DNA of 40,629 nt, from positions 1-40,629 of IMG/VR virus record IMGVR_UViG_3300005512_000094; one strand, 5' to 3'. Positions 34,115 to 35,565 of this stretch are shown one piece after another. Under the pieces are notes generated by a model, which worked only from the letters and a program-made list of their open reading frames with translations, ran no database searches and had not been told where the DNA came from. The first letter of the stretch is position 1. The number at the start of each line of letters is the position of its first letter. The DNA is from a virus. Its lineage: Duplodnaviria; Caudoviricetes. The position numbers were made by a program, and so were the translations under genes.

Positions 34115-34303
34115 ATGACTAAAGGATTTAATGTCGATTCTGTAGAAGTTGAAATGTCAAAAGGAGACATGAAACGATTGATTAAAAAATATAAGAAATT
34201 AAAAAAATTTCAAAAATCCAATCTTCATACGATTGAGACACTCGGAGGAAAGGATACAATCATTGAAAAATTGATACAAGAGTCCGATGGGTATGAATTG
34301 TAA
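34115..34303 (+). CDS. Small basic hypothetical protein (MTKGF...)
   Basis: In-frame ATG at 34115; the upstream extension in the ORF track overlaps the previous gene and crosses homopolymer tracts. Confidence 0.6.
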   Translation: MTKGFNVDSVEVEMSKGDMKRLIKKYKKLKKFQKSNLHTIETLGGKDTIIEKLIQESDGYEL

Positions 34304-34314
34304 CACATGTTACA
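34299..34314. promoter_or_regulatory. NtcA-binding site TGTA-ACACATGT-TACA (GTA-N8-TAC)
   Basis: Exact match to the cyanobacterial NtcA consensus with extended dyad symmetry, just upstream of the -35 box at 34322. Confidence 0.75.
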
Positions 34315-34321
34315 AACTTAC

Positions 34322-34350
34322 TTGACTATATAGTGCATAGGGTATATAAT
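34322..34350 (+). promoter_or_regulatory. sigma70-type promoter TTGACT-N17-TATAAT; predicted start ~34356-34357
   Basis: Direct read; the predicted start coincides with the 5' end of the structured RNA. Confidence 0.85.
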
Positions 34351-34356
34351 ATACCT

Positions 34357-34597
34357 ATCGTTCATCAGAGGAAACTCTGACGCAAGTAAGTCGCGGAACG
34401 GAGCCGTTCATCCTATGTTAGAATTATTTTTACTTGCCAAACAACCCGATATTCCTTGTATTCACATCAAGGAAGTTATTCAGGTTGTGAGAGAAGCTAA
34501 AAATGTTTCTAAAAAAGAAAAAAGAAGAATCATTCATAGAATTGAAATAAATTCTTCTTGTAAAAACTCATAGGACGCAAACGACTGAAGGAACGAC
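34357..34597 (+). ncRNA. Glutamine (glnA-type) riboswitch-like double aptamer, unit A
   Basis: CGTTCA-[TCAGAG GAAA CTCTGA]-CGCAAGTA-AGTCG-CGGAACG, then CGTTCA-[TCCTATG...CATAGGA]-CGCAAA-CGACT-GAAGGAACG. Resembles the glnA motif core CGUUCAUC...GACG.AAGUA...GAAGGAACG with an AGUA/GAA E-loop. Confidence 0.7.
34415..34573 (+). CDS. 52-aa ORF nested in a riboswitch P2 loop (MLELFLLAKQPDIPCIHIKEVIQVVREAKNVSKKEKRRIIHRIEINSSCKNS)
   Basis: Manual translation; ATG and TAG lie in the two paired strands TCCTATG/CATAGGA; below the ORF-track size cutoff. Confidence 0.6.
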   Translation: MLELFLLAKQPDIPCIHIKEVIQVVREAKNVSKKEKRRIIHRIEINSSCKNS

Positions 34598-34603
34598 TGA
34601 AGG
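34580..34603 (+). repeat. 12-bp tandem duplication AACGACTGAAGG x2
   Basis: Direct read, at the boundary between units A and B. Confidence 0.9.
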
Positions 34604-34605
34604 AA

Positions 34606-34627
34606 ACACTTTTATAAATAAAAGTGT
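34606..34627 (+). promoter_or_regulatory. Canonical T4 late promoter TATAAATA (34613-34620) within the inverted repeat ACACTTTT/AAAAGTGT
   Basis: Direct read; predicted start ~34627, immediately before the CGTTC of unit B. Confidence 0.75.
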
Positions 34628-35233
34628 ACGTTCATCCCATCAGATAATGAGGCAGTGCTCTAAATGTTCTGAATATAAACCTTTATCTTCTTTCTACTCT
34701 CAAAGGAAAGTATGTAAAGAGTGTTATAACAAGTCCCGCAAGGATAAGTATAACGGTGATAAAGAATTTAGAATTAAACGAGCAAAACAAATTCAACAGT
34801 ATAAAAGTGAGAGGGAATCATCTGATAGTGAATTCTATTTAAGAAAGCATCTATCAAGAAGAATTAGACAAACTTTGGTAAAACAGGGTGAATCTAAAAT
34901 TCTCTTCAATCAATACGGTATTGATGTAAACTCAATATTGTTGAATATTGGAGAAAGACCTTCTCCAGATTATCATTTAGATCATATTCTTCCAGTTTCT
35001 GCCTTTGATTTTACAGACCCATTTCAAGTATGGGCTTGTAATCATAAAGATAATTTAATGTGGTTAGATTCTAAAAAGAATATAGAAAAAAGTGATAAAC
35101 ATTCTCCAGAAGATCTTTTAAAGTATCTGCAAGAGATGAAATCTGAATGGGACGCAAGTAGAGCATAAGGGAACGGTACGTTCGGAAAGGAAATCATCTC
35201 AACCTTTCTGCGTTCTATGCTCCAAGGAACGGG
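34628..35233 (+). ncRNA. Second glnA-like double aptamer, unit B, with the HNH ORF in its P2 loop
   Basis: CGTTCA-TCCCATCAGAT...ATCTGAATGGGA-CGCAAGTA-GAGCATA-AGGGAACG, then CGTTC-GGAAAGG..CCTTTCT-GCGTTC-TATGCTC-CAAGGAACG. Confidence 0.6.
34647..35168 (+). CDS. HNH-family endonuclease with an N-terminal C4 zinc finger
   Basis: CSKC...CKEC, basic helical linker, YHLDHILP...NHKDNL..L...NIEK (beta-beta-alpha-metal motif). Confidence 0.8.
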   Translation: MRQCSKCSEYKPLSSFYSQRKVCKECYNKSRKDKYNGDKEFRIKRAKQIQQYKSERESSDSEFYLRKHLSRRIRQTLVKQGESKILFNQYGIDVNSILLNIGERPSPDYHLDHILPVSAFDFTDPFQVWACNHKDNLMWLDSKKNIEKSDKHSPEDLLKYLQEMKSEWDASRA

Positions 35234-35294
35234 AACTCGGATCACCCTACGGGGTTAAAGGAGAAAAAACTACCCATTCTTTTAGGAGTCAATC

Positions 35295-35462
35295 ATGAAC
35301 ACACTTACTATCATCAAAAGGCAAATCGAAAAGAAAGCACGTCTGCATGATGCTCAGATTCACATCACCAAATATCGTGGTGTTGATTATGATACTCGTT
35401 GTGTAGAAAGCAAAGAACCTCACGGTACTTTCTGCTATCGTGGTCTTTCATATAGCAAATGA
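35295..35462 (+). CDS. 55-aa DUF4278-like peptide (two YRG motifs)
   Basis: Manual translation MNTLTIIKRQIEKKARLHDAQIHITKYRGVDYDTRCVESKEPHGTFCYRGLSYSK; AGGAG RBS; DUF4278 genes are known to follow glutamine riboswitches in picocyanobacteria. Confidence 0.75.
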   Translation: MNTLTIIKRQIEKKARLHDAQIHITKYRGVDYDTRCVESKEPHGTFCYRGLSYSK

Positions 35463-35469
35463 GGCAATT

Positions 35470-35565
35470 ATGGAAGCACTACAAACTGCAGGGTTAATTA
35501 CCTTGGGATGTGTGACCATAATGTCTTTGTTCTATGGTGAAATCGTTCTTCTTAAGAGAGGTTGA
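35470..35565 (+). CDS. 31-aa hydrophobic peptide (MEALQTAGLITLGCVTIMSLFYGEIVLLKRG)
   Basis: GAGG RBS, one predicted transmembrane helix, ends at the terminator. Confidence 0.55.
   Translation: MEALQTAGLITLGCVTIMSLFYGEIVLLKRG

Follow-up and report, generated by a model that had tools for sequence, protein, structure and literature searches.

A nuclease gene nested in a glutamine-type riboswitch as part of a probable homing cassette of T4-type cyanophages

The window, that is the whole stretch of DNA analysed here (virus record IMGVR_UViG_3300005512_000094, 40,629 nucleotides, nt), carries T4-type cyanophage genes, and the locus under study matches Synechococcus myoviruses. A mobile cassette of 636 base pairs (bp) lies at positions 34596-35231 of the plus strand, to which all features below belong; alleles with a nine-codon insert measure 663 bp. 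The cassette contains the gene of an HNH/EndoVII-like nuclease in the P2 loop of a glutamine-type aptamer and has inserted at the 3' end of a resident tandem riboswitch. It probably spreads by classical homing, in which the protein would cleave the riboswitch of a co-infecting phage at its uninterrupted end and the cassette would be copied over during repair. Homing together with a replacement switch fits the data better than each of three rival explanations. An earlier, sequence-only reading had proposed a mobile nuclease gene that hides in a riboswitch. The mobile unit exceeds what that reading saw and comprises a late-promoter hairpin and a complete two-core aptamer pair. Overlooked were the second core (35179-35231) and an open reading frame (ORF) of 52 codons in P2 of the second resident aptamer.

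Mobility, insertion site and nuclease

Homologs of the nuclease were found at 17 viral loci and 16 metagenome loci, 12 of the latter close. Mobility was assessed on 19 occupied loci, counting duplicates and excluding locus L170. Over their 171 pairs the cassette identity is 95-100%, and the median identities of the flanks (54-56%) lie at the shuffled baselines (51.5-55%), as expected from the proposal that the nuclease travels with riboswitch sequence. After removal of same-host and short rows, 11 loci remained, of which 48/55 pairs combine a cassette identity of at least 95% with less than 65% in both flanks. Ordinary ORFs carried in P2 served as control; none of 1,711 pairs from 59 empty loci reached at least 95% with unrelated flanks. 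The locus is syntenic. Neighbouring proteins are mostly 27-84% identical to those of the window (96-98% only in L003), the nuclease 88-99%.

Empty alleles and breakpoints, which the sequence-only reading had anticipated, were identified. The cassette is absent at the same junction in L198, L060, L047, L090, L037 and L038, and in 8/8 comparisons of occupied with empty alleles the insertion follows directly after the last P1 strand of the resident aptamer. The window with L198 and L167 with L060 are the two comparisons with close matches on both sides. Empty forms departing at 34595 occur beside occupied ones in contigs of the DNA runs X1, X2 and X8 and the RNA runs X15, X17 and X18. In X17 and X18, single RNA-library contigs run through the unspliced cassette; such contigs show presence, not absence, do not prove transcription, and give neither strand, start nor level. 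A conserved riboswitch locus is thus the insertion site, as proposed, at the 3' end of the resident tandem and not in a P2 loop. In 111/111 empty alleles, and in 119/120 sites of a second sample, the final P1 strand is followed by G; the exception is a cassette carrier. The window has A at this position and lacks the 12-mer that crosses the junction in empty alleles. The insertion turns the conserved G to A and removes this 12-mer; the junction is accordingly taken as the likely recognition site, and the change as damage to the resident switch.

Host variants persist right up to the left junction. On the right side, the spacer of about 55 bp in the window, L002, L013 and L017 is absent from the closest empty alleles; L198, the empty counterpart of the window, differs there and matches both flanks. 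The spacer of L167 is shared with its empty allele L060, and L007, L012 and L165 retain host-type spacers. A spacer marker motif is present in 13/19 occupied loci versus 2/99 and 3/117 empty sites (two overlapping samples). This junction pattern is what would be expected from one-sided co-conversion, and the spacer between the cassette and the Shine-Dalgarno sequence of the downstream gene (35232-35288) was likely co-converted from a donor phage. Compared across alleles, the cassette behaves as a homing element would: it is optional at one precise site with empty alleles, and it appears to have spread laterally with co-conversion of flanks. No carrier was found among cultured phages, of which 385 records match parts of the locus and none covers 80%; the protein gave one weak match. 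The distant tblastn loci L155-L158 were rejected as chance aptamer-like hexamers between ordinary genes, with no glutamine-family Rfam match in L155 and L158, and L153, L154, L159, L160, L174 and L177 were rejected for absence of the motif pair.

At the start of the cassette, the 3' end of the resident aptamer is repeated imperfectly (34596-34607), as the second unit of a 12-bp duplication (34580-34591/34592-34603) that the sequence-only reading had noted. This copy is cassette-borne, since it is constant across loci while the host copy varies, and is a candidate operator beside the late promoter. An inverted repeat (34606-34627) with arms of 10 bp, not 8 bp as read earlier, spans the T4-type late promoter octamer TATAAATA at 34613-34620. 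The octamer is kept in 13/13 full-length homolog loci from IMG/VR. It is conserved in L170 with both arms of the surrounding repeat changed together, which supports the promoter candidate; it is altered in the deletion allele L017 and absent in L171. The 5' half of cassette aptamer A follows (34629-34645), with a P1 strand at 34629-34633 and the 5' arm of P2 at 34635-34645. The nuclease gene (34647-35168, 173 amino acids, with an N-terminal Cys4 zinc finger) ends in SEWDASRA, as reported before, and its last nine codons overlap the 3' half of aptamer A (35141-35176). This half consists of the 3' arm of P2 (35141-35152), the junction (35153-35160), the 5' strand of P3 (35161-35169) and a P1-type strand (35171-35175). 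Aptamer B, a variant core (35179-35232), comprises P1 (35179-35183), a hairpin (35185-35208), the 3' strand of P3 (35215-35222), the final P1 strand (35227-35231) and a G in linchpin position (35232). Repeats of 8 bp at 34588-34595 and 35224-35231 bracket the unit, in agreement with the earlier description. No sigma-70-like or terminator-like site was found at the cassette ends.

The nuclease matches PHROG 1035, annotated as endonuclease VII (E 2e-17), and belongs to a family with 4,564 library proteins at E<=0.001. An Asp-His pair followed by conserved Asn indicates a beta-beta-alpha-metal (HNH/EndoVII-like) fold. Among 149 distant homologs the pair and both Asn residues are near-invariant (D112 145/149, H113 147/149, N136 148/149, N145 149/149), and K148 is among the conserved residues (145-149/149). 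The second His of the DHHRN motif is absent, residues 112-115 being DHIL. Foldseek with a structure model (predicted local distance difference test 75) returned viral HNH proteins at E 1e-5 to 1e-2 and the PacI core over 41 columns (root-mean-square deviation 2.2, E 0.48). The best hit of a VIA structure search had Z 4.5, on helices. ESM Atlas gave unnamed viral clusters, the nearest named one being HNH at 0.90. The ratio of nonsynonymous to synonymous substitution rates (dN/dS) is 0.18, 0.11 and 0.09 against L170, L165 and L164, and saturated against L171. By these alignments the catalytic residues are intact and the gene is under purifying selection.

Several observations accompany the nuclease gene. 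A 27-bp in-frame insert in the zinc-finger loop (L004-L013, L166, L167, L169) accounts for close homologs of 173 and 182 amino acids, each in several hosts. Longer N-termini in P0001 and P0002 were rejected as starts; they are read-through gene calls over the cassette leader. The nearest outgroup protein, P0009, was not found in viral contigs. It ends in FWDNIV, and its WD codons resemble the 3' arm of P2; codons of this kind in a P0009-like gene could have given microhomology for a first capture. From its C-terminus (WTQVSTL), the homolog P0007 is predicted to be located as in L171. Non-autonomous cassettes, which lack most of the nuclease gene and keep the P2 arms, occur at L017:2391-2614 and as joints 34658-35117 in X8 and 34644-35109 in X16. 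In L017 the promoter hairpin is also duplicated and altered. A second, unrelated homing-endonuclease-like gene (PHROG 314), presumably of the GIY-YIG-like type, is located in the joint between the resident cores of L007 (1640-2218), L009 (889-1467) and L165 (661-1230), and remnants of it in L114 and L281. The riboswitches of L007, L009 and L165 carry two nuclease insertions each. Another homing-endonuclease-like ORF in L179/L187 (PHROG 314, with a NUMOD1-like end) ends about 80 bases upstream of the aptamer junction.

Aptamer RNA and nested reading frames

The nuclease gene occupies the P2 apex in two aptamer types, because nuclease-free counterparts of both types carry a short hairpin there. 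The P2 arms of the cassette (34635-34645/35141-35152) form 11 bp with one bulge (-13.4 kcal/mol), as the sequence-only reading had stated. Pairing with the 5' arm is as good or better for 24/40,617 plus-strand 12-mers of the window, at six places including the true one. The long-range stem is part of the minimum free energy (MFE) fold of a 674-nt transcript (34627-35300), with pair probabilities of 0.88-0.98 for 9/11 pairs and 0.43-0.48 for two; the hairpin of aptamer B is present in the MFE fold as well. Homologs keep complementary flanking arms. In L171, whose nuclease is 57% identical, the arms differ from those of the window and are yet complementary (9 bp, best of 1,939 9-mers), so the P2 arms co-vary. 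Here the gene sits in P2 of a single canonical aptamer of another type and in another reading frame. The nuclease-free allele of this type, L319, has the same arms around a minimal loop and scores 40.9 bits with RF01739 (gathering score 35), in agreement with the assignment of the loop to a glnA-type aptamer. The two-core RNA of the window type exists without nuclease and with a short P2 hairpin in L179, L187, L128 and L191. Since the interrupted aptamer itself has no Rfam match even at E<=10 (34250-35500), nuclease-free alleles and a natural deletion were used as loop-deletion test of the Rfam match. A search of prokaryote genomes for the L171-type aptamer pattern gave no match. Upstream of position 1400 in L319, the phage-type riboswitch operon abuts a bacterial-looking gene fragment, which we take to encode a peptidyl-prolyl isomerase; the contig may be chimeric.

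The order of P1 strands, P2 stem and conserved junction is that of a glutamine-I riboswitch, and the natural deletion allele L017 can be aligned with the whole RF01739 model. P3 of the cassette forms between 35215-35222 in core B and 35161-35169 in aptamer A, and its strands co-vary between the window and L170 (cognate pairings -8.8/-8.0, swapped -4.5/-2.2 kcal/mol). Ligand-contact positions and the linchpin pair of the glutamine riboswitch have been described (PMC6698751, PMC11477058, consulted in part). The contact bases C1, G22, C58 and G59 correspond to C34629, G35154, C35230 and G35231, and the linchpin pair to C35155 with G35232, both assigned by sequence only. The linchpin position is invariant in 106/110 loci, so that a covariation test of the two-core fold had little power. 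Compensatory changes of the inner helix occur in 8/104 loci. Against this general figure, the occupied hosts L002, L012, L013, L172 and L167 carry changes in the inner P1 helix of the resident switch (four compensatory, one single), out of ten loci in which the joint was parsed; escape from cutting may account for them, or else shared ancestry.

The resident operon begins with a sigma-70-type, early promoter outside the cassette (34322-34350; 11/12 consensus matches, 17-nt spacer). Its pattern is weak alone, with five such sites versus 5.1 expected in shuffles. In the window (34340-34358) and in most loci compared, its -10 box lies within a variable inverted repeat just 5' of the first aptamer, comparable with the late octamer of the cassette; the repeat may serve as an operator, a cruciform or an RNA hairpin. 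Resident aptamer 1 (34357-34401) has a short P2 and scores 25 bits with RF01739 (E 0.009) and 19.1 bits with RF01704; the cassette flanks match the conserved core of this upstream unit, as claimed earlier. Resident aptamer 2 (34405-34595) has P2 arms at 34411-34417/34569-34575 around an ORF of 52 amino acids (34415-34573), with a homolog 92% identical in the empty allele L198. At its 3' end (34587-34595) the cassette has inserted. Together the two aptamers form a tandem glutamine-type riboswitch upstream of the presumed regulated gene, a DUF4278-like (IF17-like) gene of 55 amino acids (35295-35462). The protein matches PF14105 with 24.2 bits (E 4e-5), just below the cut-off of 25.3, and PHROG 545 with E 3e-30. 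A scan of the window with Rfam at the gathering score found no family. Publications seen in part report glutamine riboswitches in cyanophages (PMC9964418, PMC9602691), in tandem arrangement (PMC2864571, PMC9481103) and upstream of DUF4278/IF17 genes (PMC6212724).

Nested ORFs are common in these RNAs. From 120 pattern matches to phage riboswitch loci, 110 were parsed; in 78/110, P2 of aptamer 2 encloses an ORF of some 50-66 codons, and most of these ORFs, like the nuclease gene, terminate in aptamer-coded residues, here of WDAND-like type. A second sample showed a long P2 loop, judged by length, in 104/120. L170 holds an ORF in P2 of the first aptamer, too. P2 is a site tolerant of whole ORFs. 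The idea that the gene hides in the riboswitch holds as far as its nested position is concerned; the position is the usual phage layout and not specific to the nuclease. Nesting alone is consequently no evidence of joint action of nuclease and RNA.

Computed folds suggest how the downstream gene is switched. The start of the DUF4278-like gene (35295-35300) is paired with 34630-34635 in the free fold; once the aptamer helices are forced, its unpaired probability rises from 0.13 to 0.70. The start hexamer is identical in 84/119 empty sites. The 5' strand of the aptamer, complementary to this start, likely acts as a general anti-start expression platform. The start region of the nuclease gene is predicted to be unpaired with 0.56-0.66 before the 3' arm exists and with 0.27 thereafter, which makes a self-limiting translation of the nuclease plausible.

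Homing and rival explanations

The proposed sequence of events begins with an ancestral HNH gene that would have entered the ORF-tolerant P2 apex (L319 versus L171; L191/L179 versus the window type). In the lineage of the window, the whole aptamer pair and the late promoter may then have become a mobile unit. Its protein would recognise DNA spanning the junction after 34595, a position suggested by the absence from the window of the 12-mer that crosses it in empty alleles. Repair would use the aptamer end of about 25 bp on the left, and the aptamer end or the Shine-Dalgarno sequence and start of the DUF4278-like gene on the right, which would account for the one-sided co-conversion. Through the insertion the resident outer core loses its linchpin G. 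The cassette aptamer pair, with G restored, would take over control of the DUF4278-like gene, so that invasion would be close to neutral without splicing. Closing of P2 may mask the nuclease start after transcription, terminating ribosomes may open the aptamer, and the output of nuclease would be limited.

A number of results speak against this account. The late octamer, earlier called a canonical promoter, is within chance when taken alone (one in the window versus 1.9-2.3 expected on the plus strand). No HNH match of the nuclease was found in Pfam at E<=0.1, and no match to solved structures at E<=0.001 by sequence or Foldseek. The window-type nuclease-free alleles L179 (34.9 bits) and L191 (32.8) stay just below the gathering score of RF01739, and the natural internal deletion L017 reaches 27.4 bits (28.4 bits with RF01704). 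The last junction of the cassette is CAAG, not GAAG; core B is a variant. L170 has a mismatch in the inner 5-bp extension of P2 (-8.6 kcal/mol). In the computed switch, the Shine-Dalgarno sequence of the DUF4278-like gene stays paired in both folds (0.28-0.29 unpaired), and forcing the aptamer helices brings a loss of 7.6 kcal/mol in stability relative to the free ensemble. The cassette is rare (1/120 sampled sites), so that a strong homing drive would need host range or resistance as explanation. L017 lost resident aptamer 1 between repeats. In L171 only the gene is inserted and the final aptamer end is uninterrupted; its target must therefore differ from the window-type target. Three pairs of ordinary P2 ORFs with 90-92% identity and unrelated flanks indicate that passive exchange between aptamer repeats occurs.

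An extended form of the homing account, in which the riboswitch is target, refuge and regulator at once, the nuclease is translated only when the aptamer is open and the drive is tuned by host glutamine, is regarded as doubtful. Gating of the nuclease by glutamine is not supported by computation: its start region is equally closed with or without ligand-type helices (0.28 versus 0.26 unpaired), and the computed gating is nil because the prediction has P2 forming whether or not the ligand-bound helices are present.

The three pairs mentioned, out of 1,711, also belong to the first rival, in which the repeated aptamer halves serve as short arms of homology and the HNH block, with no cutting of its own, is passively shuffled as one of many interchangeable cargoes. 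P2 cargo ORFs are indeed common and varied (78/110), the junctions fall within conserved aptamer sequence, and PeSL cassettes provide a precedent (PMC4122927, as far as consulted). This explanation is unlikely nevertheless, given an identity across unrelated hosts far above that of other cargoes (48/55 versus 0/1,711 at 95% or more), intact catalytic residues with dN/dS of 0.09-0.18, and an insertion that destroys a motif kept in 111/111 empty alleles.

The overlap of the start region and the last codons with aptamer helices would suit a domesticated nuclease, whose output the riboswitch sets by host nitrogen status and whose cassette spreads by helping the carrier, e.g. by cutting competing phages or recycling DNA. 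The copying of the cassette would then be no more than a by-product. The start becomes more paired once the 3' arm exists (from 0.56-0.66 to 0.27 unpaired), both lineages with known DNA (57% identical) are located in P2, and the cassette occurs in RNA-library contigs. On the other hand, P2 forms regardless of the ligand-bound helices (0.28 versus 0.26), deletion alleles keep the RNA and lose the gene (L017; X8 joint), and the patchy, near-identical spread looks selfish. Domestication is accordingly given a slim chance. An RNA-guided or RNA-dependent nuclease similar to HEARO/OMEGA, with the aptamer RNA as scaffold, guide or ligand-gated cofactor, is hardly credible: although the gene is always inside structured RNA in loci with DNA context and the transcript would continue into the 3' flank, nothing was found in support of the guide or cofactor role raised by the sequence-only reading, the protein of 173 amino acids combines a zinc finger with one HNH-type core and matches neither a RuvC nor an IscB family, its large family (4,564 at E<=0.001) includes 0/149 distant members with an aptamer-coded end, the RNA, an ordinary glnA-type aptamer pair, occurs in nuclease-free form as well, and Rfam gave no HEARO match.

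Significance and comparison with known systems

An intron, an intein or an intergenic gap is usually regarded as a requirement for a homing endonuclease to spare its host locus. The cassette suggests another route, in which a tolerant loop of a regulatory RNA gives shelter and a spare copy would replace the switch broken by the insertion. The conserved riboswitch end of 12-25 bp is a testable target, common to an estimated 2,000 viral contigs, roughly. The locus further represents a natural test of aptamer folding across a translated loop of 500 nt, and a path along which cyanophages may acquire from one another the nitrogen-sensing control of a likely glutamine-synthetase inhibitor. Should the extended form of the homing account be true, then, given the second, unrelated nuclease family in another loop of this RNA, riboswitches would offer homing endonucleases a new class of refuge, in the role that falls to self-splicing introns in coding genes. 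Full-text literature searches turned up no description of a nuclease gene inside a riboswitch; subscription papers and unseen supplements may hold one. The consulted parts of a survey of structured phage RNAs (PMC10690425) and of a review on OMEGA and homing systems (PMC13565253) describe no such arrangement.

A group I intron was rejected, as no intron family was found in the window at the gathering score or in 34250-35500 at E<=10 and RNA-library contigs are unspliced; assignments to HEARO/IscB OMEGA, the DHHRN group and PeSL were rejected likewise. The following comparisons draw on the parts of the cited sources that were consulted. In the HEARO/IscB OMEGA systems, too, a mobile unit couples an HNH-type gene with structured RNA; there, the RuvC-HNH protein IscB uses a dedicated guide RNA inside IS200/605 elements, and none of these features was seen in the cassette (PMC13565253). 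PeSL cassettes of T4-type phages likewise use short conserved regulatory sequences as exchange points of small ORFs (PMC4122927). They consist of an early promoter and a terminator stem-loop, whereas the repeats of the cassette are aptamer halves, its junctions lie in the aptamer, and its cargo is a nuclease with signs of self-driven spread.

With the glutamine-I riboswitch (RF01739) the cassette shares the core, the P1-P2-P3 layout, the ligand-contact positions, the linchpin, a downstream DUF4278-like gene and the predicted ON logic. Unlike known members, it has a P2 loop of about 500 nt with a nuclease gene, a P3 between two cores, and a riboswitch that is part of a mobile unit. The supplementary alignment of PMC2864571, as far as seen, contains only short or moderate P2 loops.

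F-CphI of cyanophage S-PM2, which takes part in collaborative homing at psbA, is similar in its cyanophage origin, its EndoVII-like core and a target locus widespread in cyanophages (PMC6083498). It carries a DHHRN motif, in contrast to the window nuclease without second His (DHIL), and adjoins the intron that protects its target; the cassette itself interrupts its presumed target.

Late promoters, operators and co-conversion are known from T4 homing endonucleases (PMC2988022), and the proposed membership of the cassette among T4-type homing endonuclease elements draws on comparative evidence. The free-standing and intron-encoded enzymes MobE, SegB and I-TevI/II/III likewise combine an optional gene, a late promoter, RNA structure over the start and flank co-conversion (PMC2988022). 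The near-copy of the target at 34596-34607, next to the cassette promoter, recalls the I-TevI operator (PMC2988022). Unlike these systems, the cassette is sheltered by a riboswitch hairpin loop in a non-coding leader and not by a self-splicing intron, an intein or an intergenic gap. It has sharp ends inside an RNA motif and brings a complete spare regulatory RNA, and nothing is spliced out.

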